A stretch of DNA of 64,000 bases from an uncultured Acidimicrobiales bacterium (lineage in GTDB: Bacteria > Actinomycetota > Geothermincolia > Fen-727 > Anoxymicrobiaceae): assembly GCA_964512645.1 (NCBI GenBank), contig CAZEJS010000001.1, positions 825 to 64,824 of the forward strand, read 5' to 3'. The stretch's first letter is position 1. The number at the start of each line of letters is the position of its first letter. Below are positions 21,269 through 50,065 of this stretch, one piece after another. The notes under the pieces are model-generated. The model had not been told where the DNA came from. It made no database searches and saw only the letters and a program-made list of their open reading frames with translations. A program made the translations under genes and the position numbers.

Positions 21269-21292
21269 TTTCACCTTTCTCCGATCGGTCGT

Positions 21293-21787: not shown

Positions 21788-21788
21788 G

Positions 21789-23042: not shown

Positions 23043-23116
23043 CGTGATATTTCCTCCAATAATCACTGTTCCCCCCTAAGGCTTCACGCCTTTGGTGGGG
23101 AACTGTTCGAAAGACC

Positions 23117-24328: not shown

Positions 24329-24357
24329 TTGAATTAGATATTTCCATTTGATATATT
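24329..24357 (+). promoter_or_regulatory. Candidate sigma70-like promoter for gcvH (TTGAAT-17-TATATT)
   Basis: tttGAATtagatatttccatttgaTATATTcc lies 24 nt upstream of the AGGAGGGAG RBS and ATG 24381, in an AT-rich island. Confidence 0.45.
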
Positions 24358-24380
24358 CCTCTGGGACTACTAGGAGGGAG

Positions 24381-24770
24381 ATGGCCATGGAAAACTTTCC
24401 TGAGGATCTGAAGTATCACAAAGAGCACATGTGGGTGCGCGGCGACGGCACCATTGGGATAACTTTCTACGCCCAGGACCAGCTGGGCGAGATCGTCTTC
24501 ATCGAAGTGCCCGAGCCCGGGGCCGACGTCGAGGCCGGGGAAGGCTTCGGGGAGATCGAGTCGCGCAAGTCGGTCTCGGACCTCATCGCCCCGGTGACGG
24601 GCACCATCAAAGAGGTCAACGCCGAAGTGCAGGACGCCCCCGAGATCATCAACGAAGACCCCTACGGCAAGGGATGGGTCGCCATTATCGACGTGGCCGA
24701 CGCCGCGGAGATCGAAGGCCTCATGACAGCGGCCGAGTACAACGAGCTCGTTTCCGGAGAGGAAGGCTGA
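24381..24770 (+). CDS. gcvH: Glycine cleavage system H protein (lipoyl carrier)
   Basis: ORF 24348..24770. ATG 24381 follows AGGAGGGAG. MAMENFPEDLKYHKEHMWVRGDGT...GEIESRKSVSDLIAPVTG contains the lipoyl-lysine context (ESVK-like SRKS). Confidence 0.9.
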   Translation: MAMENFPEDLKYHKEHMWVRGDGTIGITFYAQDQLGEIVFIEVPEPGADVEAGEGFGEIESRKSVSDLIAPVTGTIKEVNAEVQDAPEIINEDPYGKGWVAIIDVADAAEIEGLMTAAEYNELVSGEEG

Positions 24771-26354: not shown

Positions 26355-26366
26355 CTCTCCACCCTC

Positions 26367-27836
26367 TCAGGCCGCCTCGAGGCCCGTGGGACGCGGGTCG
26401 AAGCCGACCGCGCGCTCGAGGGCCAGGGCGGCGTCCAGTATCTTCCGTTCCGAAAGGGGCGGGCCCATGAGCTGCAAGCCGACGGGCAGCCCTCCGGCGA
26501 GCCCGCAGGGCAGGCTCAGCGCCGGGATTCCGGCCAGATTGACCGGTATCGTGCATTTGTCGGACAGGTACATGGTCAGCGGGTCATCGACCTTCTCCCC
26601 GAGCTTGAACGCGGTTGTCGGGGACGTCGGGGATACCAGCAGGTCGTACTGGTCGAACGCCCGCCCGCAATCCCTGATGATAAGGGTGCGGACCTTCTGC
26701 GCTTTGGCGTAGTACTCGTCGTAGCAGCCCGCCGACAGCGCGTAAGTGCCGAGCATGATCCGGCGCTTGACCTCGGGGCCGAAGCCCCGGGCCCGCGTCT
26801 CGTCGTACATCTCCCATACGTCGCCGAACTCCCCCTCCGCGCGGAAGCCGTACCTCACCCCGTCGAACCTCGCGAGGTTGCTCGAGGCCTCGGCCGGGGC
26901 GATGAGGTAGAAGGAGGAGAGTCCGTACTCGAAGCTTGGGAGCGACACCTCGTCGCAGGACACCCCCATCCCCTCGAGGGCGTCCATGGCCTCCCGGACA
27001 CGCTGTAGCACCTCCGGGTCTATCCCCTCGCCGGACAACTCCTTGACGATGGCCACCTTCATCCCCTGGACCTCTCCGGTGAGCCCGTCGAGGTAATCGC
27101 GGGCGGGCTCTTCGATGGAGGTGGAGTCGCAAGGATCGTGACCCGCTATGACCCCCAGGAGGGCGGCGCAGTCGGTCACGTTCAGCGCCATCGGGCCGAC
27201 CTGGTCAAGAGAAGAGGCGAACGCCACCAGGCCATACCTCGAGACGAGCCCGTAGGTCGGCTTCATCCCCACTATTCCGCACAGCGAGGCCGGCTGGCGT
27301 ATGCTCCCCCCGGTGTCGGAACCCAGCGCCCAGGGGGCCTCACCCGCGGACACCGCCGCGGCGGAGCCTCCGCTGGAACCCCCGGGGACCCTCTCCAGGT
27401 CCCAGGGATTGGCGGTGTTCCCGAAAAAGGAGTTCTCGGTCGAAGAGCCCATGGCGAACTCGTCCATGTTCGTCTTTCCCAGCACAACCATGCCCGAACC
27501 CTTCACCCGCTCCACGACGGTCGCGTCCCATGTCGGCACGTAGTTCGCGAGCATGCGCGAAGCGCAGGTGGTACGTATGCCCTTCGTGGAGAGCGCGTCC
27601 TTGACGGCGATGGGAACGCCGGCGAACCGGCCCGCGTCCCGGCCCCGGGCGATATCCTCGTCTATCCGCCTGGCCTCCCTGAGGGCGCCTTCCGGGTCGG
27701 TGTTGATATAGGCCCCGACAACCTCCTCCAGGGACTCGATCCGCCGGAGGAACGCTTCGGTGACCTCCTGCGCCGAGACCTCCCGCCTGTCGATCAGCCG
27801 CGCCGTCTCGACGGCGCTTTTGTAGAGCATCTCCAT
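26367..27836 (-). CDS. gatA: Glutamyl-tRNA(Gln) amidotransferase subunit A
   Basis: 489 aa, amidase signature (GGSSGGSAAAVSAG). Confidence 0.95.
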   Translation of the reverse strand: MEMLYKSAVETARLIDRREVSAQEVTEAFLRRIESLEEVVGAYINTDPEGALREARRIDEDIARGRDAGRFAGVPIAVKDALSTKGIRTTCASRMLANYVPTWDATVVERVKGSGMVVLGKTNMDEFAMGSSTENSFFGNTANPWDLERVPGGSSGGSAAAVSAGEAPWALGSDTGGSIRQPASLCGIVGMKPTYGLVSRYGLVAFASSLDQVGPMALNVTDCAALLGVIAGHDPCDSTSIEEPARDYLDGLTGEVQGMKVAIVKELSGEGIDPEVLQRVREAMDALEGMGVSCDEVSLPSFEYGLSSFYLIAPAEASSNLARFDGVRYGFRAEGEFGDVWEMYDETRARGFGPEVKRRIMLGTYALSAGCYDEYYAKAQKVRTLIIRDCGRAFDQYDLLVSPTSPTTAFKLGEKVDDPLTMYLSDKCTIPVNLAGIPALSLPCGLAGGLPVGLQLMGPPLSERKILDAALALERAVGFDPRPTGLEAA

Positions 27837-27845
27837 CTCCCCCGC

Positions 27846-28130
27846 CTATACGATCCTCGGCACCTTGAAGGCGCCGCCCTCCGCGTCAGGCGCGCCGCCG
27901 GTGGCCTCCTCTACCGGAAGTGACGGGCGCACCTCGTCCTCACGGAATACGTTGACCACCGGCAGGGCATGACTGGTGGGCGGCACGCCCGCCGTGTCCA
28001 GTTCGCCGATGACCCTCGCATGCTCCAGTATCCCGGAGAGCTGGTCCCGGTAGGTCTCCTTTTCTTCGTCGTCCAGCCTGAGCCTCGCCAGCCTGGCCAC
28101 GTGTTCAACATCCTCGACGGTTATCGCCAT
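27846..28130 (-). CDS. gatC: Glutamyl-tRNA(Gln) amidotransferase subunit C
   Basis: 94 aa, MAITVEDVEHVARLARLRLDDEE typical GatC. Confidence 0.9.
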   Translation of the reverse strand: MAITVEDVEHVARLARLRLDDEEKETYRDQLSGILEHARVIGELDTAGVPPTSHALPVVNVFREDEVRPSLPVEEATGGAPDAEGGAFKVPRIV

Positions 28131-28154
28131 CCTTGCCCCCTCCAGGTCCGCGCC

Positions 28155-30865
<2,711 letters not shown>

Positions 30866-32053: not shown

Positions 32054-32575
32054 ATGGAGAACGAGTGCACCTGTGCCAACAGGTTCGCGGACGTAGACGA
32101 CCTGGGCCCCATAGAGGAGATACTCGAGAGGTACGGCAGGGAAAAAGGTGCCCTGATACCTCTCCTCCAGGAGGCCCAGGACGCCTACGGCTACCTGGAC
32201 GAGAAGATCATGCGCGAGATATCCCGCGGGGCGGGATACCAGATGAGCCAGGTCTATGGGGTGGCGACCTTTTTCGCGCAGTTCAGGTTGAAACCGGTCG
32301 GCGAGCACCTGATCAAAGTCTGCCACGGGACCGCCTGCCACGTGGCGGGGGCCACCCAGATCACCGACGAGATCGCCAACCAGCTCGGAATCAAGGAGGG
32401 CGAGACCACCCCGGACAATAAATTCACCCTCGAATCGGTGATGTGCCTGGGAGCCTGCGCGCTCGCCCCGATCATGGTGGTCGGGGACGACACCCACGGC
32501 AAGCTCAAGCCCACCGGCATCAAGAAAATCCTCAAGAAATACTCCGGCGACGGCTCGCGGGAAGAGGAAGAGTGA
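32054..32575 (+). CDS. NuoE-like [2Fe-2S] thioredoxin-fold subunit (24-kDa / HndA-type)
   Basis: 173 aa. Cys motif CHGTAC...CLGACALAP typical of NuoE/HoxF-N. Confidence 0.85.
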   Translation: MENECTCANRFADVDDLGPIEEILERYGREKGALIPLLQEAQDAYGYLDEKIMREISRGAGYQMSQVYGVATFFAQFRLKPVGEHLIKVCHGTACHVAGATQITDEIANQLGIKEGETTPDNKFTLESVMCLGACALAPIMVVGDDTHGKLKPTGIKKILKKYSGDGSREEEE

Positions 32576-32577
32576 CA

Positions 32578-34368
32578 ATGAGCGGCAACGGAAAGAAACA
32601 CAAGGTGGTCCTGGGCTACGGCACCTGCGGCATCGCGGCGGGGGCCACCGCCGTAAAGGAAGCGCTTGAAGAAGAGGTCAGGGCCGGCGGCTACGACGTC
32701 GACCTGGATATCGCCGGCTGCATGGGCCTCTGTTTCAAGGAACCGGTCGTCGAGATATTCGACCGGGACGGCGGCTCGGTCATCTACGGGGACATCACGC
32801 CCAAGAAAGTCGGCCGGCTCCTGGCGGAGCACGTCGGGAAGGGCGAGCTCGTCGAGGAGTGGATTATCAGGAAGAGCTCCGACCCGGAGTCCATCGAGGG
32901 CGATTTCCTGGAGAACCAGCACCGGATAGTCCTGCGCAACTGCGGCAAGATCAACCCCGAGAGCATCGAGGAGTACATCGAGGCTGGCGGCTACGAGGCG
33001 GCCGGGAAGGCGCTTTCCTCGATGACGCCGGAGGATGTGATCGAGGAGGTCTCCGGCTCCGGCATCAGGGGCAGGGGCGGCGCCGGGTTCCCCACCGGCA
33101 CCAAGTGGGGTTTCGCGCGCAAGTCGCCCGGGGAGGAGAAGTACCTCATATGCAACGCCGACGAGGGCGACCCCGGGGCGTTCATGGACCGGAGCGTCCT
33201 CGAGGGCGACCCTCATTCTGTCATCGAGGGAATGATACTCGCGGGCTACGCGATCGGTGCGAAGTACGGGCTGATCTACTGCCGCGCGGAGTACCCTCTC
33301 GCCCTTAAGCGCCTGGACATCGCGATAGAGGCGTGCCACCGGAAGGGGTACCTCGGGGAGAACATCTTCGGCAGCGGCTGGGATTTCGACCTCAAGGTCA
33401 AGAAAGGCGCCGGCGCGTTCGTCTGCGGGGAGGAGACCGCGATGATGGCCTCCATCGAGGGAATGCGCGGCATGCCGCGTCCGCGTCCCCCGTTCCCGGC
33501 GAACTCGGGCCTGTGGGGCAAGCCGACGAACATCAACAACGTCGAGACCCTTGCGGCCATCCCCTGGATCGTCTCCAACGGAGGCGCCGCCTACGCGGCC
33601 GTCGGCACTGAGAAAAGCAAGGGGACGAAGGTGTTCTGCCTGGCCGGCAAGGTGAGGCGGACGGGCCTGGCCGAAGTCCCGATGGGCTACACGCTCAAGC
33701 AGGTCATCTTCGACGTCGGCGGAGGCATCGCCGGCGGCAAGGAGTTCAAGGCGGTCCAGATGGGCGGCCCTTCCGGGGGCTGCCTCCCCGCCGAGAAGCT
33801 GGACACGCAGGTCGACTACGACCAGATCACCGCCGCCGGGGCCATCATCGGTTCGGGCGGGATGATAGTGGCGGACGACCGCACGTGCATGGTCGACCTG
33901 GCGCGCTACTTCCTCTCGTTCACCCAGGACGAGTCCTGCGGCAAGTGCACGCCCTGCCGCATCGGGACCAAGCGCATGCTGGAGATACTCGAGCGCATAT
34001 GCGAGGGCAGGGGGAAGCCCGACGATATCGAGCGCCTGCTGGCGCTGGCCGAAGATATCAAGGCGGCGAGCCTCTGCGCGCTCGGGGGCACCGCGCCCAA
34101 CCCGGTCCTCACCACCCTGCGGTACTTCCGTAACGAGTACGAGGACCACATCTTCAACCACAGGTGCACCGCCGGGGCGTGCCCGGCGCTGATAACCCTG
34201 TCGATAGACCCGGAGACGTGCACCGGCTGCGGCGCCTGCGTCAAGGTCTGCCCGGTCGACGCCATCTCCGGCGAGAAGAAAGAGGCGCACATCATCGACG
34301 AAGACGCCTGCATCAGGTGCAAGATGTGCCTGTCCAGGTGCCCGTCCGAATCGATAATCGCACGGTAG
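32578..34368 (+). CDS. NuoF-like FMN/NAD(P)H-binding subunit with N-terminal [2Fe-2S] domain and C-terminal 2x[4Fe-4S] ferredoxin domain (HndC/HylB-type)
   Basis: Internal ATG 32578 (MSGNGKKHKVVLGYGTCGIAAG...) follows the AGGAAGAG RBS right after the nuoE-like stop. GRGGAGFPTGTKW FMN site, CxxCxxC NuoF cluster, then CTGCGACVKVCP / CIRCKMCLSRCP. Confidence 0.85.
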   Translation: MSGNGKKHKVVLGYGTCGIAAGATAVKEALEEEVRAGGYDVDLDIAGCMGLCFKEPVVEIFDRDGGSVIYGDITPKKVGRLLAEHVGKGELVEEWIIRKSSDPESIEGDFLENQHRIVLRNCGKINPESIEEYIEAGGYEAAGKALSSMTPEDVIEEVSGSGIRGRGGAGFPTGTKWGFARKSPGEEKYLICNADEGDPGAFMDRSVLEGDPHSVIEGMILAGYAIGAKYGLIYCRAEYPLALKRLDIAIEACHRKGYLGENIFGSGWDFDLKVKKGAGAFVCGEETAMMASIEGMRGMPRPRPPFPANSGLWGKPTNINNVETLAAIPWIVSNGGAAYAAVGTEKSKGTKVFCLAGKVRRTGLAEVPMGYTLKQVIFDVGGGIAGGKEFKAVQMGGPSGGCLPAEKLDTQVDYDQITAAGAIIGSGGMIVADDRTCMVDLARYFLSFTQDESCGKCTPCRIGTKRMLEILERICEGRGKPDDIERLLALAEDIKAASLCALGGTAPNPVLTTLRYFRNEYEDHIFNHRCTAGACPALITLSIDPETCTGCGACVKVCPVDAISGEKKEAHIIDEDACIRCKMCLSRCPSESIIAR

Positions 34369-34407
34369 GAGGCCCGCTGACCACCGTTGCCCTACGGGAG
34401 GTTCGAG

Positions 34408-37185
34408 TTGGAAGAGATCACGGTCCGGATCGACGGGACTGAGGTGGTCGGGCCGAAAGGCTCGACGATACTGGACATGGCGAAAGCCGGCGGGATTGAC
34501 ATACCGACGCTGTGCTACGACCCGAGGCTGTCGCCTTACGGGGCCTGCAGGCTCTGCCTGGTGGAGGTCGAGGGCGCGCGGGGCCTGCTGCCGGCGTGCT
34601 ACGCCGAGGCTACCGACGGCATGGTCGTCCGGACCGCCACCGAGCAGCTAGAGCGCATCAGGAAGACCCTGGTCGAGCTCCTGGTTTCGGACCACCCCAT
34701 GGAGTGCCAGGGTTGCACGAAATCGGGACGCTGCGAACTGCAGAGACTGGCCGACCGGTACGGGGTCACCGACGACTCCGCCTTCGAGGGAGAGGTGCAC
34801 GAGTACGATCTCCTGCAGGAGAACCCTTTCATCATCCGGGACTACAACAAGTGCGTCATGTGCGGCCGCTGCATCCGGATATGCCGCGAAGTCCAGGGGG
34901 TCGGGGTTTACGACTTCGTCAACCGGGGATTCAAGGCGGTTCCCGGCACCCCCTACTCCAACCCGATGACCGAGACTCCGTGCGAGTTCTGCGGGCAGTG
35001 CATCTCGACCTGCCCGACAGGCGCGCTCAAGGCGCGCCCGTACGAGGCCGAGGGGCGCGTGGCCGCGCGGGACCTGCTGCGCAACGCCTGCGCCTTCTTC
35101 AAGATGAGCGAGGACGAGATGATGGAGGCGCTGGGCCTCGAAGGCTGGAAGGTCCGTACGACCTGCGCCTACTGCGGCTGCGGCTGCCAGCTCGACCTCC
35201 ACGTCATCGACAACAAGGTCGTCGAGGTGACCTCCCCCCTGATGGTGGGTCCCGGGCAGGGCAACCTCTGCGTCAAGGGACGGTTCGGCTACGACTTCAT
35301 CGACAGCGACGACAGGCTGACCAGGCCGCTGATCCGCAAGGAGGGGCGTTTCGTCGAGGCCGGATGGGACGAGGCCCTCGACCTTATCGCCGCCAGGCTG
35401 GGGGAGGTGAAGGCGAAGAGCGGCCCCGACTCCATCGGCATCCTGTCCTCGGCGAGGGCCACCAACGAGGACAACTACGTGGTGCAGAAGTTCGCCCGGG
35501 CCTGCGTCGGCACCAACAACGTCGACCACTGCGCACGTTTGTGACACGCTCCAACCGTCGCCGGTCTGGCGAAAACGTTCGGAAGCGGAGCGATGACCAA
35601 CACCATCGATGACCTCGAGGAAGCCGGGGCGATACTGGTCATCGGGTCCAACACCACCGAGGCCCACCCCATCATAGGCCTGCGGATCAAGAAAGCGGTA
35701 ATGCAGAACGACTGCAAGCTGATCGTCGCCGAGCCGAGGCGCATCAGGCTCTCGCACTACGCCGACAGGGTCCTGCAGCACAGACCCGGCACCGACGTCG
35801 CCCTGCTCAACGGGTTCATGAACGTCATCATAGAGGAAGGCCTTTACGACGAGGCGTTCGTGGCGGAAAGGTGCGAAGGTTTCGAGGAGCTCAAGGAGCT
35901 CGTGAAGGAGTACCCCCCCGAAAAGGTGGCGGAGATCTGCGAGGTGGAGGCGGAAGAGATACGCCAGGCCGCGCGGACCTTTGCCGCCGCCGACAGCGCC
36001 GCCATCCTGTACGCCATGGGCATCACCCAGCACACCACCGGCACCGACAACGTCGTTACCGTGGCCAACCTGTCGATGCTCACCGGCAACATCGGCAAGC
36101 GCGGCGCGGGCGTCAACCCATTGAGGGGACAGAACAACGTCCAGGGCGCCTGCGACATGGGGGCGCTTCCCAACGTGTTCACCGGCTACCGCCCTGTGAG
36201 CGACGAGGAGACGCGCCGGAAGTTCGAGGAGGCCTGGGGCGTCGAACTGCCCTCCGAACCGGGGATGACCGCCACCGCGATGATGGAGGCCGCCGCGGAG
36301 GGCGGAATCAAGGCGATGTATATCGTCGGTGAGAACCCCATGGTCAGCGACCCCAACCTCCGCCACGCCGAGAGCGCCCTGGGGAACCTCGATTTCCTGG
36401 TGGTCCAGGACATATTCATGACCGAGACCGCGGCCCTTGCCGACGTGGTGCTGCCGTCGGCCTCCTTCGCGGAGAAGGAGGGCACCTTCAGCGCCACCGA
36501 CCGGCGCGTGCAGAGGGTGCGCAAGGCGGTGGAGCCGCCCGGCGAAGCCCGGGCCGACTTCGAGATAGTCGCGGACCTCTCGAGGAGAATGGGTTACGAC
36601 ATGGGCACTCCGGAGCCCGCGGAGATCATGGAAGAGGCGGCGTCTCTTACGCCGCATTACGGCGGCATCAGCCACGCCCGGCTCGATTCCCTGCCGGAGA
36701 ACGAGGCGCTGCACTGGCCTTGTCCGGACCCCGGGCACCCTGGGACACCCATACTGCACACCGCGCAGTTCACCCGCGGCAAGGGCTGGTTCTGCCCGGT
36801 GCTCTACCGGGCGCCGGCGGAGCTGCCGGACGCGGAGTACCCGCTGGTCCTCACCACCGGGCGCGTCCTCTGGCAGTACCATACCGGTACGATGACCCGC
36901 CGAGTCGACGGCATCAACGAACTCGACCCCCACGGGAAGGCCTGGATCAACCCCGAGGACGCCGAGGAGGCCGGCATCGAGATCGGCGGGGACGTGCGCA
37001 TAGCCACCCGCAGGGGAGAGATCGAGATGGAGGCGCTGGTCACCAGGCGCATACCGAAGGGAATGATCTTCGTTCCGTTCCATTACTCCGAGGCGGCCGC
37101 CAACGTCCTCACCAACGACGCCCTCGACCCGGTAAGCCGGGTCCCGGAATTCAAGGTCAGCGCCGCCAGGATCAGCGCGAAATGA
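34408..37185 (+). CDS. fdhA: Formate dehydrogenase catalytic subunit, probably a selenoprotein (in-frame UGA at 35542..35544 read as Sec). N-terminal [2Fe-2S]/[4Fe-4S] NuoG-like domain fused to a Mo/W-bis-PGD domain
   Basis: Track ORFs 34387..35544 and 35593..37185 are in the same frame. The sequence across the TGA reads [36 protein letters not shown]..., which aligns with the E. coli FdhF active-site region (VDNCARV-U-HGPSVAGL...). The rest matches FdhF along its length. Probable TTG start at 34408 is 6 nt after GGGAGG. Confidence 0.85.
35548..35580 (+). ncRNA. SECIS-like mRNA hairpin directing Sec insertion at the fdhA UGA
   Basis: CGCC-GGUCU-GGCG hairpin about 15-30 nt 3' of the UGA, with the GGUCU apical loop as in the E. 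coli fdhF SECIS. Sequence match only. Confidence 0.6.
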
Positions 37186-37212: not shown

Positions 37213-38601
37213 ATGGAAGACACCCTAGTCGAAACGGAAGCCAAGACGGAGGCGGGGTCAGCGGACGTGCAGGACGTCAGGATCCTCGCGTTCCTGTGCA
37301 ACTGGTGCTCTTACGCCGGGGCGGACCTGGCGGGCGTCTCCCGGATGCAGTACCCCTCCAACGTGATCGACATACGTGTGATGTGTACCGGGACGATCTC
37401 CCCGTACTACGTGCTGAAGGCGTTTCAGGAGGGTATCGACGGCGTCCTCATCGCCGGGTGTCACATCGGGGACTGCCACTACGACAAGGGCAACTACGCC
37501 ACTGCCAGGAGGTTCCGGGTCATCAAGGACATCCTCACCGGCGTAGGAATAGACCCGAGGCGCCTTCGGCTGGAGTGGGTAAGCGCCGCTGAGGGCGCCA
37601 AGTTCCAGGACGTCATAACTTCGTTCACCGAGCAGGTGCGCGAGGCCGGCAGGTCCCCGCTGATGAGCGGCTCATCGAAAGGCCTGGCCGACACGGCCGC
37701 CGGGCCCGCGGTAGCCCCAGAGAGACTCCTCGACGTGAAGGCCGGCGACTGGCGCCCCGGGCCCACCGAGGAGGCCGTGGCGCGGGCGCTGCGGGGAGCG
37801 ATCGAAAGCGGTGAGGCTTCCGCCGCTGTATTGCTGACGGAAAGCGACGGGCTGCTGGTGCCGCGGGTGGCCAGAAGCGCGGACGACCCCGCGTTCGAGC
37901 GGTTGTACGCCGGAGATTCCCGTTACCCCATGGCCTCCTTCGCGCTGATGGTCCTCCCGCTGGTCGAGGGAAGGCTGGCCCTCCCGGTGCGGGAGTGCGA
38001 CAGGCGCATGATAGTCGAGCTGAAGAAGCACAACCAGGTGGATCCCGACAGGCTGCTGCTGCTGGGGGTGCCCTGCTCCCAGGAGCGCGCCGACACCTGC
38101 GGATGCGATCACCCGTTCACCTCCGCGGAGATCGCCGTGGCCCCGGCGCTGGCCGAGCCCGTGCTTCAGGAGACGGCGGACGGCGAACTGCCGGAGACGC
38201 CGGGGGAACTCCTCGAATACTGGATGGGCCACTTCTCGCGCTGCATCAAGTGCATGGGCTGCCGGAACGTTTGCCCGCTGTGCTACTGCAGCGAGTGCGC
38301 GCTGGACGACCCGGACCTCGTGGGACCGGACTCCAAACCTCCCGACATCCCGATATTCCACCTGATCCGCGCCGCGGATATGTCGGACCGATGCGTGGAT
38401 TGCGGCATGTGCGAGGAGATCTGCCCGGCAGGCATACCCCTGCGCCGCCTCTACCGGCAGGCCCGCGACGTGGTCAGAGAAGCGTTCGGGTACGACCCGG
38501 GCGTCGACCCCGACGCCAGCAGCCCGGTCAAGATGCTGGGCGAGCCCGCCGACCTGGGCGGCATGAGGGATGGGTACCGGGCCTCCGATCAGGAGCGGTA
38601 G
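37213..38601 (+). CDS. MvhD-domain / 2x[4Fe-4S] ferredoxin fusion protein (FlpD-like electron-transfer subunit)
   Basis: N-terminal MvhD/FlpD pattern (ILAFLCNWCSYAGADLAG...MCTGTISPYYVLKAFQEGIDGVLIAGCHIGDCHY). C-terminal CIKCMGCRNVCP and CVDCGMCEEICP motifs. Confidence 0.8.
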   Translation: MEDTLVETEAKTEAGSADVQDVRILAFLCNWCSYAGADLAGVSRMQYPSNVIDIRVMCTGTISPYYVLKAFQEGIDGVLIAGCHIGDCHYDKGNYATARRFRVIKDILTGVGIDPRRLRLEWVSAAEGAKFQDVITSFTEQVREAGRSPLMSGSSKGLADTAAGPAVAPERLLDVKAGDWRPGPTEEAVARALRGAIESGEASAAVLLTESDGLLVPRVARSADDPAFERLYAGDSRYPMASFALMVLPLVEGRLALPVRECDRRMIVELKKHNQVDPDRLLLLGVPCSQERADTCGCDHPFTSAEIAVAPALAEPVLQETADGELPETPGELLEYWMGHFSRCIKCMGCRNVCPLCYCSECALDDPDLVGPDSKPPDIPIFHLIRAADMSDRCVDCGMCEEICPAGIPLRRLYRQARDVVREAFGYDPGVDPDASSPVKMLGEPADLGGMRDGYRASDQER

Positions 38602-38777: not shown

Positions 38778-39659
38778 TTAGAGCTCGAGGTAGGAGGCCG
38801 CGAAGAGGGTCTCCTCGTGGAAGAGCTTGACGGTCTTCTTGATCGCCAGCTGCAGCGGGTCGCTCAGGTCGAGCTCGCCCTCCTTGAGCCCCTCGGCGAT
38901 CTGCACCAGGTCGTACTCCGGGCTCTCCATGCGCGCGACCGCCATCAGTTTCTCGTCATTGGGGTCGACGATCGCCGCGTCCATGCCGTGGCCCATCAGG
39001 GCCGCAAGGTAGATACGGTTGACGAACTCGGCGTTCTCGGTGGTGAGCCCACACTTGTTGCTGACGTTGGACAGGCCGCAAACGAGGTGCGGCTTGTCCG
39101 GGAGCTCGGAGAACATCTGGGTCGCCACCAGGAGGGCGTGCACCTGGTCCTGGGCTACCCCAATGGGGAGCACGATCGGGTCGATCCAGTAATCGTCGTG
39201 CCCGATCCCCGCCGCCTCGAACGCCATCATCAGGTTGTAGCCGTTGGTGACACGCTCCTCGGCGTCACGGGGCACACCGGCCTCGCTTGTGCACAGTCCC
39301 ACCACCTTGGCGTTGTACTCCAGGGCCAGCGGGATGAGACGGTCCATCCGCTCCTGGACGTTGGAGATCGAGTTGATTATCTTGGGGTTCTTGCCCACCT
39401 TGAGGCCGGCTTCCATCGCGTCCATGTTCATCGTGTCCAGCGACAGCGGCAGGTCGGTGACCTCCTCTATCGTCTCCACCATCCACTGCATGAGCTCGGG
39501 GCCGTTCTTGGTGGCCGGCCCGAGGTTGATGTCTATGCAGTCGGGCTTGCCCTCGAGCTGGATCGTCACCATGTCCTGGATGGGGCCCTTTTCGCGGGCG
39601 TTCATGGCCTCCTTGATCTTCGTGGTGATCACGTTGACCTTCTCGGCGATGATGTACAT
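38778..39659 (-). CDS. acsE: Methyltetrahydrofolate:corrinoid iron-sulfur protein methyltransferase (pterin-binding / DHPS-like fold)
   Basis: 293 aa pterin-binding TIM barrel. Last gene of the acs operon. Confidence 0.85.
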   Translation of the reverse strand: MYIIAEKVNVITTKIKEAMNAREKGPIQDMVTIQLEGKPDCIDINLGPATKNGPELMQWMVETIEEVTDLPLSLDTMNMDAMEAGLKVGKNPKIINSISNVQERMDRLIPLALEYNAKVVGLCTSEAGVPRDAEERVTNGYNLMMAFEAAGIGHDDYWIDPIVLPIGVAQDQVHALLVATQMFSELPDKPHLVCGLSNVSNKCGLTTENAEFVNRIYLAALMGHGMDAAIVDPNDEKLMAVARMESPEYDLVQIAEGLKEGELDLSDPLQLAIKKTVKLFHEETLFAASYLEL

Positions 39660-39712
39660 CTCTACCTCCTTGCCATCTCCCTGTTCATACGTCCGTCGTA
39701 TGCGCCATCGCG

Positions 39713-40543
39713 CTATTCCAACATCCTGTGGGCGAAGTACGAACTCCGCACCAGGGGCCCGGCGGCAACCGCCTCGAACCCCATCGCCAGCGCAGCCTCC
39801 TCGAGCGAAGCGAACTCCTCCGGTTCCCAGTAGCGCTCCACCGGCACGTTCGCCGCGCCCGGCCTGAGGTACTGTCCGACGGTCAGGAGCCTGCAGCCGG
39901 ACTCCAGCAGGTCCTGCATCAGGGCGAGGACCTCGTCCCGGCTCTCCCCGAGCCCGACCATCAGTCCGCTCTTGGTCCGGAACCCCGCCCCGGCGGCCCT
40001 GGATAGCACCCCCAGTGACCTGGAGTAGGCGGCCTGCGGCCTTGCCGTGGCGTAGAGCCTCTCCACCGTCTCCACGTTGTGGTTGAAGACGTCGGGCCCG
40101 GCGGCCAGCACCGTGTCCACGTCGCCGCTCCGCCCGGCGAAATCGGGTACCAGCACCTCGGTCGTCACCCCGGGCGCCGCGTCCCTGACGGCCTCCACCA
40201 CGGCGGCGAAATGCCCCGCCCCCCCGTCGGGCAGGTCGTCCCTGGTCACCGACGTCACCACGACGTGCCTCAGGCCCATCTCCGCGGCCGCTTTCGCCAC
40301 CCTCTCAGGCTCGTCTTCCTCGAGCGGACCGGGCGTCCCCCCGGGGACCGCGCAGAACCCGCAGTCCCTGGTGCACCTGTCGCCCATTATCATGAACGTC
40401 GCGGTCCCCGCTTCGAAGCATTCCCCGCGGTTCGGGCACTTGGCCCCTTCACAGACCGTGTTCAGGCGTTGCTCCGCGAGGACTCCTTCAACCCTGGACA
40501 CCTGCGGCCCGCACCTGACAGGCCTCAGCAGCCAGCGGGGCAT
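39713..40543 (-). CDS. lipA: Lipoyl synthase
   Basis: ORF 39713..40573. ATG 40543 gives MPRWLLRPV... (compare E. coli KPEWMKIKLP). CEGAKCPNRGEC auxiliary-cluster cysteines and radical-SAM CTRDCGFC motif. Confidence 0.85.
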   Translation of the reverse strand: MPRWLLRPVRCGPQVSRVEGVLAEQRLNTVCEGAKCPNRGECFEAGTATFMIMGDRCTRDCGFCAVPGGTPGPLEEDEPERVAKAAAEMGLRHVVVTSVTRDDLPDGGAGHFAAVVEAVRDAAPGVTTEVLVPDFAGRSGDVDTVLAAGPDVFNHNVETVERLYATARPQAAYSRSLGVLSRAAGAGFRTKSGLMVGLGESRDEVLALMQDLLESGCRLLTVGQYLRPGAANVPVERYWEPEEFASLEEAALAMGFEAVAAGPLVRSSYFAHRMLE

Positions 40544-40573
40544 CCGGTCCCTGGAGCGAGGCTCCGACAGCAT

Positions 40574-41626
40574 CTACGAGTACCTCGCCCGCATCGCCTC
40601 CGAGACCTCCCGGGTCAGCACCAGCGCCCTCTCGGCGACCTCCATGCTCGCGGGCCCCAGCCCGCAGGACGGTGAGACCAGCGACCTTGCCGCGACAAGG
40701 CCCCTGTCGATCCCCTGCCCCTCCAGCACGTCGAACCCGCTCTCCAGCATCGAGACCAGCTCGGCAGATGTGATGCTGGTAACGCTCTCGTCCTTGGGGA
40801 TGACCCCCCAGGCCAGAGAGCCACCGCGCTCGAGGTGCCTGGCGATGTCGGGACCGTACGCAACGAACGGCTCCATGTACTCGAACGCATCGAAGTGGAC
40901 CACGTCCACCCCAGTGGCGAACACGAGCGACCAGTCCGTGTTCCCGCAACAGTGCACGCCCGTGATATCCGCGCCGCACCCCGCGAGGCACTCGGTGATG
41001 TCGTTGACGACCTGCTCCCTGCTGACGCTTATGAGCGCAGAGCCCACTGAATGCAGGTAAGGCTCGTCGTAGAACATCACCACTTTCGCCCCGGGCGCGG
41101 CCTTTCTCAGCTCTCGGCTCTGCCACGCGCCCTTGAGCGCGAGCCCCTTCACTATCGCCTGCTCCAGGTCAGGATGGTAGATGCTCGCCTTCCTGTTCTG
41201 GTCGGTGACGGTGAGCCCGAACGAGGCAGGGCCCGTAACGTGGCCTTTCACATATGGCCTGCTCTCGAGGTCGCTCGCGAAAGCTCCCCCGAGGAACGCC
41301 GCAAGCCCGTGTGCGTACTCGCCCGATATCGCGAACCTGTCCAGGTCTTCGGCGATGACGGCCTCGTAGAAACTCTCGAGCTCCTCCGGAAGCGCGTCGT
41401 CCACCTGGAACCACAAGCGCTTGGCGGCCTCGTCAACCCTGATCCCCGGAAGGCCCTGCGAGTACTGGGCGTACATGTTCTCGAGGAAGCCTATCTTCGG
41501 CAGCTGCGGCCAGGCCGCTACCTCGCCGAAGGCTTCCAACATGAGCTTCACGGCCTGCTCAGCATCCGTGTGCGGCAGGCTACCGATAGCTATCATCGCG
41601 AACCACGGTTCGAAATCACCAGTCAT
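40574..41626 (-). CDS. Core-MetE-like protein: stand-alone cobalamin-independent-methionine-synthase catalytic (C-terminal) domain of the URO-D/CIMS fold. Candidate methylcorrinoid:homocysteine methyltransferase
   Basis: 350 aa. Motifs parallel the MetE C-terminal domain: VKGHVTGPASF (MetE ...GP.T.), VVMFYDEPYL (IQIDEPA), GVHCCGNTDW (HMCYS Zn ligands), SPSCGLGP (PDCGLK). No N-terminal folate-binding half. Confidence 0.7.
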   Translation of the reverse strand: MTGDFEPWFAMIAIGSLPHTDAEQAVKLMLEAFGEVAAWPQLPKIGFLENMYAQYSQGLPGIRVDEAAKRLWFQVDDALPEELESFYEAVIAEDLDRFAISGEYAHGLAAFLGGAFASDLESRPYVKGHVTGPASFGLTVTDQNRKASIYHPDLEQAIVKGLALKGAWQSRELRKAAPGAKVVMFYDEPYLHSVGSALISVSREQVVNDITECLAGCGADITGVHCCGNTDWSLVFATGVDVVHFDAFEYMEPFVAYGPDIARHLERGGSLAWGVIPKDESVTSITSAELVSMLESGFDVLEGQGIDRGLVAARSLVSPSCGLGPASMEVAERALVLTREVSEAMRARYS

Positions 41627-41718
41627 AGGGCCCGGCCCCTTCCCGCCTTCTGACCACTCTGCATCACCAGATGTCTGCTATGCGCAAAGGGGTCTGACCC
41701 CGACTGCGATCAGTGCCC

Positions 41719-42669
41719 TTAAAGGGCGTTGATATCCAGCTCTGCCTCTTCGAGGATCCTCGGTACGACGTCCTCCTTGCCGATGGCCATGATGTGCACG
41801 CCGTCAGCGAGGTTCTCTTCGCGGATCCGCTTGATGTGCCGCGCCATGATCTTGATGCCAACATCGATGCCTTTGCCCTTCTCGGCAGCCGACATCTCTT
41901 CGATGAGGTCATCGGGCACGAAGACGCCAGGTACGTTCTTGTTCATGTACTTGGCCATGCCCGCCGACGTGAGCAGAACCAGGCCCGCCTGCATCTTGAT
42001 CGGGTACTGGCGCGCGATCTTCATGAACTTGGCGAAGTTGTCCATGTCGTAGATCGCCTGGGTCTGGAACCACTCGGCTCCGGCCTCGACCTTCTTCTCG
42101 AACTTGATGAGCTGCGGCTCGATGGGCACGGCCTCGGGCGTCACGATGGCGCCCTTGTAGAACTTGACGGGAGCGTTCATCTCGTTCCCGCCGAGGTCCT
42201 TGCCCTCCTCCATCAGGCGGATCATGTTCAGGAGCTGGACCGACTCGAGGTCGAATACCGCCTTGCACTCCTTGTGGTCGCCCGTGGGGACGCTGTCGCC
42301 GGTGAGGCACAGCACGCTGCGGACGCCCCGGGTGTAGGCGAAGAGCATCTCGTTCTCCAGCGACATGCGGTTGCGGTCACGGCAGGTGACCTGCAGGTTC
42401 GGCTCGCCGCCTCTCTCGAGGATTATCAGCGCGGTAGCCAGCGACGGGTAGCGCATCACCGAGCTCTGGTTGTCGGTGATGTTCATCGCGTGCACCTTGT
42501 CCTTGAGGAGGTCGACGTGCTCGATGACCTCCTCGATGTCAGGTCCCTTGGGGGGCCCGATCTCGCCGGAGACCAGGAACTTGCCGGACTCCAGAACCTC
42601 CTGAATGGAAGGCTTAGAGTTCTTGACCTTGAGTTCTTCCCATACCTTCTCTACGCTCATCCTATTCAC
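41719..42669 (-). CDS. metF: Methylenetetrahydrofolate reductase, acetogen-type large subunit (alternative ATG start 42660)
   Basis: MTHFR TIM-barrel (AEWFQTQAIYD, ...LVLLTSAGMAKYMNKNVPGVFVP). Overlaps the metV stop. Confidence 0.85.
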   Translation of the reverse strand: MNRMSVEKVWEELKVKNSKPSIQEVLESGKFLVSGEIGPPKGPDIEEVIEHVDLLKDKVHAMNITDNQSSVMRYPSLATALIILERGGEPNLQVTCRDRNRMSLENEMLFAYTRGVRSVLCLTGDSVPTGDHKECKAVFDLESVQLLNMIRLMEEGKDLGGNEMNAPVKFYKGAIVTPEAVPIEPQLIKFEKKVEAGAEWFQTQAIYDMDNFAKFMKIARQYPIKMQAGLVLLTSAGMAKYMNKNVPGVFVPDDLIEEMSAAEKGKGIDVGIKIMARHIKRIREENLADGVHIMAIGKEDVVPRILEEAELDINAL

Positions 42670-43324
42670 CGCCCTTCACGCGCTCGATCACCAGGCGGCC
42701 CGGCTTCATGACCGGGTTCCAGTTCTTGGGCGGCTGGTATTCCTTCATCTTGGACAGCTTGCCCTCCCGCTCGAGCTGCTGATAAATGAGGGTCCACGCG
42801 CAGTCCTTCTCGGGGTCCACCTCGCACTTCCCGTCGTTGGTTCCGCCGCACGGCCCGTTGAGGATGCCCTTGTGGCAGCGGGTCACCGGGCATATCGCGC
42901 CGGTCATCTCCAGCACGCAGTCTCCGCACAACTGGCACTTCTCCTCGAACTGGCCGACCCGCATCACGTTGCCGAGGAACAACGTATCGTTGGAAGGAAA
43001 CACGGGTTTGTCCGTGGCGTTCCTCGCCGCCTGGGTACCCGCCCCGCAGGACATGACAAGGAAGGCGTCGGCCTTCTCGACCTCGTCCTTGTGGGCGCGG
43101 AACTCCTTCTTGATGTCCAGCTCCTGGCAGCCGGTCTCGGGGACGAAGCCGCCGGTAACGACCTTGCCCTCGGCCGTGAGCTTCTCGGTCATCTCCTTAA
43201 TCTGGTCTTCGCCACCGGTCTGGCACGCGGTGGCACAGTCGCCGCAGCCGATCAGGAAAACGCTCTTGGCGTCTTCAAGCTCTTTGAGGATGGCCTCAAA
43301 GGCTTTCTGCTTGGTTATGATCAC
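42662..43324 (-). CDS. metV: Methylenetetrahydrofolate reductase small Fe-S subunit
   Basis: 220 aa, Cys-rich (CGDCATAC, CQLCGDCVLEMTGAICPVTRC, CGGTNDGKCEV). GTG start preceded by AAGGAGGAG. Confidence 0.85.
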   Translation of the reverse strand: MIITKQKAFEAILKELEDAKSVFLIGCGDCATACQTGGEDQIKEMTEKLTAEGKVVTGGFVPETGCQELDIKKEFRAHKDEVEKADAFLVMSCGAGTQAARNATDKPVFPSNDTLFLGNVMRVGQFEEKCQLCGDCVLEMTGAICPVTRCHKGILNGPCGGTNDGKCEVDPEKDCAWTLIYQQLEREGKLSKMKEYQPPKNWNPVMKPGRLVIERVKGGE

Positions 43325-43360
43325 CTGCTCCTCCTTTCAATGTCCGCTCCTTCGAACGCT

Positions 43361-44713
43361 CTATGAGCTCGCCACGTAGTTGCGCAGGTAAGAGGAAATG
43401 TCCGCCGCCTCGCGCGGCCCTATCAGTATCTCCCAGTCGGCGAGCTCCTCGTCGAGCTCTCCGGATATCTGCGCCACGTACCCGGGGATGATCAGCTTCC
43501 GGTGGCCGACCTTCTCGGCGATCCCCGAGGTGTTGACGAACTTGGCAATTATGTCCGGCACGAACTTGCCGGCGGCCCAGGCGGTAAGCACCGACTGCCC
43601 CTCGGAATCGACCACGCCGAGCCAGGCGTCGACCTTGGAGGCCTCGATCTCCCCGGAGACGATGAAGTACGTCAGCGAGAAGTTGGTGGTGACCATCACC
43701 GGCGAATCGGGACCGGGGCTGCCGATCTCGTAGAACTTGGCGTCGACCGCCATCGGCTTCTGGGGGTCGGTGTACACGTTCTGGATCTCCACCTGCAGCG
43801 GGTACTGCAGCCACGCCTCGGCGCTGGAGAGCACCACGATGTCCGCGTACTTGGCGATGTAGACCCCGGCGTACGCGCCCTGGAGGAACTCGTCGTCGGT
43901 CTCCTCCGCCGGGAGCGTGATGATCGGGAACCCGAACGGCTTGAACTTGGCGGTAAGGGCGCCCTTCCTTATCTGGATAACGGCCTCGAAAGTCTCCTTG
44001 AGGGTCCTGGTGCCGGGGTCGAGGACCAGGTCCTTGAGCTCCATGCCGGCCGCCTTCTCGGACAGGTCGGCCAGGTCGTCCAGGGAAGCCCCTTTCAGCA
44101 CCAGCGGCAAGCCCTTCTCCTTCGCCAGCGCGCCCATGGCGTCAATGTTTGCCGCCGTCGCGCAGTACATCAGCGGGTTCTTGTCGCCGATCTTCTCCAG
44201 CGCGGCCTTCATGACCCCGGCGTCCTCGGTCATGGGCATCAGCGCGCAGTCGGTCATGCCCGCGACCTTTCCGGCGAAGTCGGCGAACTTCCCGGCGTCC
44301 CCGGACTCGCACTTCAGCGCCACCAGCTTGACCTCGAGGTGCTGGCCCACGCGGTCCCAGGAGTCCGCGTTCACCGCTTCGATCTTGACCTTGAGCTCGT
44401 CCTCGGACATCGCGTCCGAGACCAGCACTCCCATGCCCGGAGGGTTCATGAACCGCTTCTCGTGCCTGAAGAGCACCAGCTCCTCGCCTGTGGTGAACTC
44501 CTTGGCCCCCTGTCCGATTATTACTCCCCTCACCGGCGGGGCGGCCGCGTCGGCCAGGGCCGCCTTCGCCTCGTCCGAGACGTGCGGGCAGTCTTCGAGC
44601 TTCGCCTGGCCGCCCGCGAGCTTCATCGCGAACGCGAGACAGGTGGGTAGCTTGCACTCACCGCAGTTCGTCTTCGGGAGCAGCTTGAAAATATCGAGAC
44701 CGCTCAGTGCCAT
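43361..44713 (-). CDS. acsC: Corrinoid iron-sulfur protein large subunit
   Basis: 450 aa. N-terminal [4Fe-4S] motif CGECKLPTC, cobalamin-binding C-terminal Rossmann region. Confidence 0.9.
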   Translation of the reverse strand: MALSGLDIFKLLPKTNCGECKLPTCLAFAMKLAGGQAKLEDCPHVSDEAKAALADAAAPPVRGVIIGQGAKEFTTGEELVLFRHEKRFMNPPGMGVLVSDAMSEDELKVKIEAVNADSWDRVGQHLEVKLVALKCESGDAGKFADFAGKVAGMTDCALMPMTEDAGVMKAALEKIGDKNPLMYCATAANIDAMGALAKEKGLPLVLKGASLDDLADLSEKAAGMELKDLVLDPGTRTLKETFEAVIQIRKGALTAKFKPFGFPIITLPAEETDDEFLQGAYAGVYIAKYADIVVLSSAEAWLQYPLQVEIQNVYTDPQKPMAVDAKFYEIGSPGPDSPVMVTTNFSLTYFIVSGEIEASKVDAWLGVVDSEGQSVLTAWAAGKFVPDIIAKFVNTSGIAEKVGHRKLIIPGYVAQISGELDEELADWEILIGPREAADISSYLRNYVASS

Positions 44714-44819
44714 CTCCCTACTCCTTTCGTCCCATCTTTACCGGTCCTATTCGTTTTGCGTACCATCCCGCTCGCCCTCCCCCCCGTGGGGGAGGGCCGG
44801 CGGGGGTGTTCCATATCGC

Positions 44820-47006
44820 TTACGCGAGCATCGGGTCCATCGTGAGCGCGGGGTGCTCCTTCTCCGTCAGGAACGGCAGGATCTCCTCCTCGGTCACCCC
44901 GACGGTCTCGTCGGCGATCTTGTCGATGAAGTCGGGAGTTCCCAGCTCCTCGGCCCGCCTGTCGAGCTGCTCGCGCAGTGTCTCCTTGAGCTCCTTCGGC
45001 ATCCAGACGATGCGGTGGAAGCCGCCGTCGGCGCTGATGAACTTCTTGGAGGTTATGTAAACTTTGCCGATGCCGACGAATCCCGGGGTGACGTTCCCTC
45101 CGCCAACCGAGCCGGCGAGCGTCGAGAAGGACATGCCGCATGGAGTCTCCTTGCCGGTGAACTCCCTGTTGACGATCATGACCCCGTTGCATATCGGCAG
45201 GAACGCCACAATGCACTCGAAGCAGCCGCACGACGTCATCGGATCTTCCATCATCGTGTAGGCGTTGAACTTGTCCAGCTTCTGCCCGGAGTTATCGTAA
45301 ACGAACTTGTTGACGTTGACCCACTGGCCCTTGTCCTCGTCGATAGCGTCGCCCTTGGGGATGGGCTGGTTGGGTCCGGTGGGGTCGATCTCGTAGGCCG
45401 CCTTGCAGTCGAGCCAGTTGTAGGCTCCGCAGAGCCCGAGGCGCTCGGGCGTGACCACGCAAACGTGGGTGGGCGCGAACGACTGGCAAAGCGTGCACGA
45501 GTAGTAGATGTCCGTGGTCTCGTCGGTCATGCCGGCGGTGCGCTCGTCGCGCTCCGCGTACTTGGCGCGCGCATTGGCCAGCCACTCTTTGCACGGAGCC
45601 TCCTCTGTGTAGAGAGTGACCTCGACCTTGTCGACTATCGCCGGGAACTCGCCCAGCAGCTTGGCGTGGAGTATCTCGCCGTAGTCCTTGATCTTGAAGC
45701 CCTTGGACTGGGCCTTCTTGCTGATGCGCGTCCAGACGATATCGCGCTGGCCCATGTGCCAGATGCCCTCGGCCCCGTTGATGAGGTGGTGGCACTGGCG
45801 CTCGAGGATCGACTCGAAATCCTCCTGCATCTTCCGGCCGGCCACGTGGATCACGATTCCCAGCGGAAGGGCCGCGCCGGCCTCGATGTCGTCGATCTCC
45901 GGCCCGACCACGGTGATCTTGCCGTCCTCGACCTCGTCCATCTCCTTCATCTCCACGAACTCGAACGCCGGAGTGATGTTGCCTCCGAACTGGCAGTACA
46001 TGTCCTCCTTGCGGATGCGCTCGCCCTCGAAGGCCGGCCCGTAGGCCATGGGGATGGGGACCTTGGTGACCTGTATCTTCAGACCGCGAACCTCGACCGC
46101 CTTCTGGACGATCTGGTCGTGGGGTATGTTGGAAACCACGTGCTCGTAGGTGCAGACTCCCGTTGGCAGGATCTCCGGTATGGGCGTGTCGGCGATCGTC
46201 GGGAAGCCGTAGTTGATAGCGCCCGCGGCGTTCGCGTACCACTCGTCGGTGACCTCGCCCAGCGCCATGACAAACGCGAATATCCGGTTCTTGTTGTAGA
46301 GCAGGACCTTGCGGTAGTCGCCCGGCTGCGCGCCCCCGAAGCTCATCGCCGCGCGGGCGGCGAACCCCAGCGAGTACACCGCGGAGCCTATCTCGCGCCC
46401 GTAGGGCACGATGCGGGTCTCCCAGCCGAGCTGGACCCCGATGCTGTCGAGCTGCTCGGCCACCGTGGTGCCGTTGAAATTGCCGCTCGTCCAGACGTAG
46501 AGGTTCTTCTCCTGGAGTTCCTTGACTATGCTCTCGGCGGTCTGGGGATCGGGCGCCGAACCTGCGAGCGCGCAGAAACCGGGCGCCGATCCGTCGACGA
46601 ACTCGACGCCCCTCTCGCGCATTATCACGTCGTCGGCGGCGCCCAGCCATATCCCGTCGACCGGGTTGGGGCCGTCGATGTACTTGATGGCCTCTTCGAG
46701 CTCCTCCATGAACAGGGTCGCCATCCCCGCGTCCAGCCCCGGCCCCAGGTAAGGGGTCCAGAGGCCGTCCCTGGGGAGAGGGGGGATCAGGTCCTCGGCG
46801 ATCTTCATGACCTTGCCGAAATCACCGAGTTTCTCGACCTTCTCGCCGGTCATGGCGTAGATTATCGGGAGGTAGTAGGCGGTGTTGGGAAACGCCACCT
46901 CCTGGTTCTCCCCGTGCTTCTGCAGGGCCTCGTCGATCCGCGCAGCTACCCTGTCGTGGATGGCGTGCGCTCCTCTGATCGCGGCACTTAGAATTATCTT
47001 GGACAT
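44820..47006 (-). CDS. acsB: Acetyl-CoA synthase (A-cluster subunit)
   Basis: 728 aa, collinear with Moorella AcsB along its whole length (AYYLP..., CTLCQSFAPTHVCVVTPERLGLCGA, MTSCGCFECIVAFLP, FIDKIADETVG). RBS AAGGAGGAG. Confidence 0.95.
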   Translation of the reverse strand: MSKIILSAAIRGAHAIHDRVAARIDEALQKHGENQEVAFPNTAYYLPIIYAMTGEKVEKLGDFGKVMKIAEDLIPPLPRDGLWTPYLGPGLDAGMATLFMEELEEAIKYIDGPNPVDGIWLGAADDVIMRERGVEFVDGSAPGFCALAGSAPDPQTAESIVKELQEKNLYVWTSGNFNGTTVAEQLDSIGVQLGWETRIVPYGREIGSAVYSLGFAARAAMSFGGAQPGDYRKVLLYNKNRIFAFVMALGEVTDEWYANAAGAINYGFPTIADTPIPEILPTGVCTYEHVVSNIPHDQIVQKAVEVRGLKIQVTKVPIPMAYGPAFEGERIRKEDMYCQFGGNITPAFEFVEMKEMDEVEDGKITVVGPEIDDIEAGAALPLGIVIHVAGRKMQEDFESILERQCHHLINGAEGIWHMGQRDIVWTRISKKAQSKGFKIKDYGEILHAKLLGEFPAIVDKVEVTLYTEEAPCKEWLANARAKYAERDERTAGMTDETTDIYYSCTLCQSFAPTHVCVVTPERLGLCGAYNWLDCKAAYEIDPTGPNQPIPKGDAIDEDKGQWVNVNKFVYDNSGQKLDKFNAYTMMEDPMTSCGCFECIVAFLPICNGVMIVNREFTGKETPCGMSFSTLAGSVGGGNVTPGFVGIGKVYITSKKFISADGGFHRIVWMPKELKETLREQLDRRAEELGTPDFIDKIADETVGVTEEEILPFLTEKEHPALTMDPMLA

Positions 47007-47045
47007 GTAAACTCCTCCTTTTCTTTCTCGTCAGTGCCTCAGAGG

Positions 47046-48998: not shown

Positions 48999-49046
48999 CT
49001 GTCCTCAACTCCTCGCTCTTCGTGAGCTTCCGTGGCCTCGTCGGGC

Positions 49047-49985: not shown

Positions 49986-50065
49986 GTGATTCCACTTCCT
50001 TTCTACGGTTCAACCACCGTGCGCCGCATTGATATATGTCAAACACGCTCGGCGCGCGCGCCTCG

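Follow-up and report, generated by a model that had tools for sequence, protein, structure and literature searches.

The question raised by this locus is whether two consecutive open-reading frames (ORFs) divided by an in-frame TGA are two genes, the remains of one broken gene, or a single formate dehydrogenase (FDH) gene, fdhA, in which UGA is read as selenocysteine (Sec). The locus lies in a 64,000-nucleotide stretch of contig CAZEJS010000001.1 (hereafter the window), from the GenBank assembly GCA_964512645.1 of an uncultured actinobacterium placed in the Anoxymicrobiaceae. The ORFs at 34387..35544 and 35593..37185 share one frame, the distance between them (35593-34387) being divisible by three, and translation of 34387..37185 gives a single frame of 933 codons whose sole internal stop is the TGA at 35542-35544. 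Public gene calls break this gene into a product of 385 or 378 amino acids and a second of 530 amino acids. A sequence-only reading of the locus had anticipated both results, namely one reading frame interrupted only by this TGA, and a gene that automated annotation would split. Our analysis makes it highly probable that 34408..37185 is one functional gene for a Sec-containing, Mo- or W-dependent formate dehydrogenase alpha subunit.

Profile searches place the TGA inside a domain. Upstream of it, the translated sequence matched Pfam Fer2_4, NADH-G_4Fe-4S_3, Fer4_Nqo3, Molybdop_Fe4S4 and positions 1-81 of the Molybdopterin profile, whilst downstream of it the Molybdopterin match took up again at profile positions 96-352 and was accompanied by Molydop_binding; as the Molybdopterin profile continues across the TGA, this codon cuts a domain and does not part two genes. 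The joined protein has a NuoG-like 2Fe-2S/4Fe-4S N-terminus, then the catalytic domains of the Mo/W-bis-pyranopterin guanine dinucleotide type. When it was scanned against NCBIfam with cysteine (Cys) put in for the UGA residue, TIGR01591 (Fdh-alpha) scored 875.6 bits against a cut-off of 666.25 and was matched over its full length (profile positions 1-672 of 672), which bears out the formate dehydrogenase that had been named from the sequence alone. The best matches of the alpha subunit in PDB were NAD-linked FDHs of the FdsA type (6tg9 and 9wxb, E ~1e-226; 6tg9 E 6e-226), and E. coli FdhH (1aa6) matched residues 248-922 of the joined protein (E 6e-173). On these profile and structure-database matches, 34408..37185 is a metal-dependent formate dehydrogenase alpha subunit.

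Residue 379, which the UGA encodes, and His380 align with Cys386-His387 of chain 6tg9_A, the metal ligand of that enzyme and its partner, and the placing of the TGA at the catalytic Sec position by the sequence-only reading was thereby confirmed. The invariant Cys, Arg and His columns of the family alignment are all kept in the joined protein; they include the active-site Arg (within LRGQNNVQG) and the N-terminal 4Fe-4S Cys motif in the catalytic domain, and Molybdop_Fe4S4 matches as well. E. coli fdhF likewise has UGA at the homologous catalytic position, then His, and the two sequences are colinear through U-H-x-P-[ST]-V-A-G-L. In the E. coli fdhF mRNA the Gly-Leu codons GGU-CUG form an apical GGUCU loop 18 nt past the UGA, as in the window. 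The proposed likeness to FdhF stood in part: the UGA position is homologous, but the protein, a longer FdhA, is no hydrogenlyase subunit of the FdhF type. Compared with E. coli FDH-H, it carries a NuoG-like Fe-S N-terminal extension of ~245 residues, has NuoE/NuoF-like partners and lacks a hydrogenlyase context.

Downstream of the UGA, the hairpin that had been reported at the distance of a selenocysteine insertion sequence (SECIS) was recovered: CGCC-GGUCU-GGCG occupies 35559-35571, and a flanking U-A pair makes the stem 5 bp. The hairpin begins 13 nt past the UGA and its GGUCU loop exactly 18 nt past it. The window holds 140 GGTCT sites on both strands, and no other is closed by a stem of 5 bp or more. 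In a permissive local search, the Rfam model RF01989 (SECIS_3) gave a full-length match (model positions 1-59, 44.5 bits, E 1.8e-9), in which model and window agree in the UGA, the spacing and the apical GUC loop.

As the hairpin falls within the codons V-A-G-L-A-K and overlaps the conserved V-A-G-L-A, constraint on the peptide could mimic a SECIS, and this was the main question of our comparisons between genes with TGA at the aligned codon (Sec-type) and genes with a Cys codon there (Cys-type). A stem of at least 5 bp closing a 5-nt loop at UGA+18 was present in 44 of 47 distinct Sec-type sequences versus 1 of 20 Cys-type sequences (Fisher p = 1.2e-12), and the loop was GGUCU in 40 of 47 and 5 of 20, respectively. 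Amongst VAGLA-encoding sequences alone, the stem was found in 37/38 Sec-type versus 1/7 Cys-type sequences. The Sec-type alignment exhibited an 8-bp helix that was 85% paired, and its covariation of 0.319 was reached by none of 500 shuffles (mean 0.154) and lay far above the slid controls; columns 18 and 30, which are two codon third positions, held GC in 29 sequences of the Sec set, CG in 12, AU in 4 and UA in 2, and were unpaired in none. The same structure placed on the Cys-type alignment was 54% paired, with no excess over shuffles.

A covariance model (R1), built from 46 Sec-type sequences without the window sequence and without the UGA codon, led to the same contrast. R1 scored the window at 65.5 bits (E 2.5e-14), which ranks 35th of 55 Sec-type sites (median 66.8 bits), whilst the 30 Cys-type sites all fell below the window (median 34.4, maximum 59.2 bits). 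The three nearest Cys-type relatives scored 50.8, 53.0 and 51.9 bits, although two of them encode a peptide identical to that of the window; the codons of these nearest Cys-type genes are GTC-GCG-GGC-CTG or GTC-GCC-GGC-CTG, which give a GGCCU loop and stems of 0-3 bp, where the window has GTC-GCC-GGT-CTG-GCG. Candidatus (Ca.) Anoxymicrobium japonicum has the same peptide without the hairpin and without the GGUCU loop. GGT accounts for 7 of the 82 Gly codons of this gene, which is rich in G and C at third codon positions (GC3), yet GGT is the codon used in the loop. The synonymous differences fall exactly where contacts with the elongation factor SelB would be expected, and these comparisons support the view that the hairpin behaves like a SECIS and is not simply a consequence of encoding VAGLA.

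The TGA itself is found in independent assemblies. The exact 530-aa C-terminal fragment is present on three contigs from three samples (ENA ERZ778037, ENA ERZ27257459 and JGI 3300009673); these contigs (L001, L002 and L003) are 99.7, 99.9 and 98.7% identical to the window, and the TGA and its flanks are the same in all. In fdhA they depart from the window by six changes only, four of them synonymous and two conservative, and neither a frameshift nor an extra stop is present. Sequencing error at the TGA is excluded because three independent assemblies keep it; an artefact of sequencing or assembly had its a priori possibility alone in its favour, and with the same TGA and flanks in assemblies that differ from the window elsewhere, its probability is negligible.

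The distribution of the two codon types depends on how homologues are gathered. Cys was present at the UGA position in 117 of 117 full-length database homologues carrying the motif, a protein set that is biased toward Cys forms because gene callers split Sec forms. A scan based on tblastn, with one genome per species, avoids that bias and covered 80 loci in many phyla. Using a covariance-model search of the related loci, the aligned codon was TGA at 55 sites (window included) and TGT or TGC at 30, so that roughly two thirds of the related loci carry TGA and the others TGY. At 64-77% identity, the closest full-length relatives are Cys-type without exception, the nearest being Ca. Anoxymicrobium japonicum at 77%, whilst the best genome match is TGA-type and belongs to Ca. 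Solincola quzhuomuensis (L004), of the order Geothermincolales, the same as Anoxymicrobium. Since the proteins most similar to that of the window have Cys, this pattern implies a putative Sec/Cys switch within the Ca. Anoxymicrobiaceae. The Sec-type fdhA genes of Ca. Solincola quzhuomuensis and of many metagenome-assembled genomes (MAGs) of Thermodesulfobacteriota, Chloroflexota and Nitrospirota share the TGA, the hairpin position and the loop with the window (R1 52-76 bits).

This distribution bears directly on whether fdhA is a pseudogene, in which a recent nonsense mutation (TGY to TGA) in a Cys-type gene left two decaying pieces. TGC to TGA is a single base change, the closest full-length relatives are all Cys-type as noted above, and the Sec machinery of this genome is a prediction; a fresh nonsense mutation, however, brings no SECIS with it, whereas here a Sec-type hairpin and GGUCU loop are present through synonymous choices. 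Both halves keep the full coding signature (GC3 0.88-0.90) and the invariant residues, no further lesions occur in the four assemblies, which differ by up to 1.3%, and a Sec-type fdhA is also present in the same order, in Ca. Solincola. We consider decay of a Cys-type gene very improbable, and a functional Sec-type fdhA the better account of the locus.

Elsewhere in the window TGA serves as a normal stop, for example at the end of the nuoE gene (32573-32575) and of fdhA itself (37183-37185), and a reassigned genetic code is excluded on this ground. This removes one route by which the UGA might be decoded but not, or not only, as Sec; others are near-cognate insertion of Cys or Trp, or Cys carried on tRNA(Sec) when selenium is scarce, with a Cys-type or inactive enzyme as the product. 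Cys can take the place of Sec at UGA under selenium limitation, as is generally known, but the conserved SelB-type hairpin points to a dedicated pathway, and we regard decoding as another residue as highly unlikely compared with insertion of Sec. Two further candidates for recoding were rejected. Read-through of the terminal TGA of fdhA into the mvhD gene, which lies in the same frame, is contradicted by homologues that end at this position and by the ribosome-binding site (AGGAG) and ATG (37213) of the separate gene that follow. The genes ligA, gatC, gatA and gatB (24915..30182, minus strand) lie head-to-tail in one frame with the single stops TGA, TAG and TGA between them, and each has its own start and domain set.

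Several results weigh against the Sec reading. Pfam and NCBIfam scans of ~55 ORFs, essentially all genes of the window, detected no SelA, SelB or SelD, and the ~4 kb beyond the right end of the window likewise lack sel genes. The Cys-type gene of locus L090 has a 5-bp stem by chance, so the hairpin alone is not diagnostic, and with Rfam SECIS_3 the window falls short of the gathering score (44.5 against 63 bits). Its folding energy (-17 kcal/mol, z = -1.18) does not stand out, as 26 of 200 shuffles fold as well; with 5 bp, its stem is among the shortest of the Sec-type genes, which have 5-8 bp; and the six distinct fdhA substitutions among strains are too few for a ratio of nonsynonymous to synonymous rates (dN/dS).

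Some of these points have a context in the clade. The stem of the window is short because a Lys codon, AAA, comes after GCG, and another Sec-type gene with Lys there (L055) has the same 5-bp stem. Compared with the E. coli and Rfam architecture, the window helix is a continuous 5 bp without a bulged U, and the Rfam-register pair of columns 16-31 never forms in this clade; the mismatches of the window to SECIS_3 lie in the lower helix and around the bulge, and the clade model R1 fits better (65.5 bits). A whole-window Rfam scan at gathering thresholds reported nothing. By function-level tests the element is a predicted SECIS, but we do not file it as a curated member of RF01989. The family does not conserve a lower helix, as in the two registers tested (the one listed in Table 1 and that of Rfam) only 58-60% of cells were paired.

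ARAGORN detected no tRNA genes, and so also no selC, in the 64-kb window. With E. coli SelA, SelB and SelD as tblastn queries, two distant loci alone, L009 and L031, showed sel genes beside fdhA. In Perlabentimonas gracilis (L031, 556..7611) selA, selB and selD lie directly upstream of a Sec-type fdhA, and in a deltaproteobacterial MAG (L009, 16160..17188) selD lies ~4 kb downstream of a Sec-type fdhA. For the organism of the window we infer that Sec is actually inserted and that SelA/SelB/SelC/SelD are encoded outside the window, and likewise the metal and the electron partners of the enzyme; selection that keeps a SelB-type hairpin at synonymous sites would be indirect evidence of the machinery.

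In the mechanism that we propose, the UGA at 35542-35544 would be read by Sec-tRNA(Sec) brought by SelB, which would be tethered by the mRNA hairpin UCGCC-GGUCU-GGCGA, and the resulting Sec379-His380 pair would sit at the metal centre, where Cys-type relatives have Cys. The enzyme is most likely the CO2-reducing (or formate-oxidising) entry step of the Wood-Ljungdahl pathway, a role suggested because its operon adjoins a complete Wood-Ljungdahl cluster, and electrons would probably be exchanged with NAD(P)H, possibly also with ferredoxin.

In a separate observation, a second TGA-type R1 match was found in two of the related loci (L061, 14582..14635, plus strand, 29.5 bits; L055, 4941..4994, plus strand, 65.2 bits), and the genomes concerned may have, close to fdhA, a further Sec-type paralogue among the molybdopterin oxidoreductases.

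Our preferred start of fdhA is the TTG at 34408, which has GGGAGG 6 nt upstream, gives 925 amino acids and agrees both with the 378-aa N-terminal fragment calls on other contigs and with the N-termini of homologues; the TTG at 34387 is an alternative start and gives the longest ORF. fdhA is the third gene of a tightly packed operon, in which it is preceded by nuoE-like and nuoF-like genes and followed by an mvhD fusion (Table 1). The nuoE-like gene starts with ATG and has a G-rich ribosome-binding site, and the ATG of the nuoF-like gene lies 2 nt past the nuoE stop. In PDB, the NuoF-like protein matched bifurcating B subunits (9bov_B, 8oh5_B, NfnB 9n5u_B and HydB 7q4v_B) with E-values of 1e-220 to 1e-245, and the non-bifurcating FdsB (6tg9_B) with 1e-115. 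The MvhD-fusion protein has 462 amino acids, with MvhD at residues ~20-150 and, at 333-436, an Fe-S region like the C-terminus of the beta subunit of F420-dependent FDH. Ca. Anoxymicrobium japonicum (L089) has two separate genes, of 160 and 222 amino acids, in place of the mvhD fusion, and in L090 the Cys-type fdhA is preceded by hdrCBA-like genes and mvhD in place of nuoEF.

Table 1 Features of the fdhA locus, with coordinates in the window.
Feature	Coordinates	Strand	Description
fdhA (formate dehydrogenase alpha subunit)	34408..37185	+	925 codons, predicted Sec at codon 379
In-frame UGA, predicted selenocysteine codon	35542..35544	+	Residue 379
Predicted SECIS, upper hairpin	35558..35572	+	5-bp stem UCGCC/GGCGA closing loop GGUCU (35563-35567)
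SECIS-like match, full extent	35539..35597 (Rfam RF01989 SECIS_3); 35545-35598 (custom model R1)	+	
Possible lower helix, uncertain	CGCUCC 35547-35552 with GGAGCG 35587-35592	+	Perfect 6 bp around the upper hairpin, predicted fold
nuoE-like 2Fe-2S subunit, first operon gene	32054..32575	+	Pfam 2Fe-2S_thioredx; NCBIfam NuoE, HoxE, FDH-gamma
nuoF-like subunit for flavin mononucleotide (FMN) and NAD(P)H, extra C-terminal 2x[4Fe-4S] (HydB/BfuB type)	32578..34368	+	Pfam Complex1_51K, NADH_4Fe-4S, Fer4
MvhD domain fused to FdhB-C-terminus-like Fe-S region	37213..38601	+	Pfam FlpD and Fer4; PDB MvhD chains, FdhB C-termini

FdsABG-type NAD-dependent FDHs (6tg9/6tga, 9wxb) resemble the window in their NuoG-like N-terminus and in having NuoE/NuoF-like partner genes, but they are Cys-type and their beta subunit lacks the C-terminal 2x[4Fe-4S], whereas the NuoF-like protein of the window is nearer to the HydB/NfnB/StnB type. 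Bfu-type (HydABC-like) complexes have a B subunit that resembles NuoF but carries additional Fe-S domains, and a NuoE-like C subunit, both encoded beside the catalytic subunit; the window has the same arrangement. On this gene content, the FDH may be a bifurcating Bfu-type complex that is linked to both NAD(P)H and ferredoxin.

The complete Wood-Ljungdahl cluster (38778..56268) lies immediately downstream, on the minus strand and so on the other strand from fdhA, and comprises acsE, lipA, metF, metV, acsC, acsB, the carbon monoxide dehydrogenase gene, acsD, folD, fchA, cooC, RACo and fhs. By the names of the 90%-identity clusters to which its Fhs and AcsB belong, the organism falls in the Ca. 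Anoxymicrobiaceae (Geothermincolia, Actinomycetota). Split calls of fdhA could make metabolic reconstructions score the CO2-to-formate step as missing or broken, and the joined gene restores a complete pathway. The Sec reading would also imply a need for selenium and for Sec machinery in the organism, which may be useful in cultivation attempts.

Sec-containing formate dehydrogenases are the commonest bacterial selenoproteins. The arrangement is well known and gene callers routinely mis-split it, and the current understanding of selenoprotein biology is unchanged by this locus. An actinobacterial Sec-containing FDH has already been documented, in mycobacteria, with a SECIS immediately 3' of the UGA; that study used an Rfam bit threshold of 45, found sel genes in those genomes and noted that standard annotation often misses such genes (PMC13449736). 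The mycobacterial enzyme differs from that of the window in being fdhA/fdoG-like, a different FDH type, and in having an aerobic host. The ligA-lipA-nuo-fdh neighbourhood resembles that of Wood-Ljungdahl actinobacteria in which an fdhF was described and selenocysteine was not mentioned (PMC7325909). In the searchable literature we found no report of selenocysteine in Anoxymicrobium, Geothermincolia or OPB41-type Wood-Ljungdahl actinobacteria. We advance with some reservation, and as a tentative proposal, that this is the first documented use of Sec in the Ca. Geothermincolia, an actinobacterial class without cultured members, in a Bfu-type, possibly bifurcating NAD(P)H/ferredoxin-linked FDH that feeds the Wood-Ljungdahl pathway, with the MvhD-FdhB-like fusion as an extra electron outlet and a recent Cys/Sec switch in one family. 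The putative switch provides a clean natural Sec/Cys pair within one family, in which differences at synonymous sites would create or destroy the SECIS.

Other genes of the window were recorded in passing. A lipoyl synthase gene (39713..40573) is embedded in the Wood-Ljungdahl cluster, and genes for GcvH (24333..24770) and a dihydrolipoamide dehydrogenase-like protein (56741..58150) lie near it. Between lipA and metF, a 350-aa ORF (40574..41626, minus strand) has a good coding signature and no Pfam or NCBIfam match. Similarly, two further minus-strand ORFs exhibit coding-like GC3, one of 359 amino acids (23181..24260) without a Pfam or NCBIfam match and one of 307 amino acids (3365..4288) without a Pfam match. 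The regions 5415..12365 and 20255..23066 (minus strand) hold two paralogous sets of aconitase-family large and small subunits together with an isopropylmalate/isocitrate-type dehydrogenase, and two HMGL-like synthases of the LeuA/CimA/homocitrate synthase type; they flank ilvC, ilvB, ilvD and serA, and the sets probably represent parallel leucine and citramalate/isoleucine branches.

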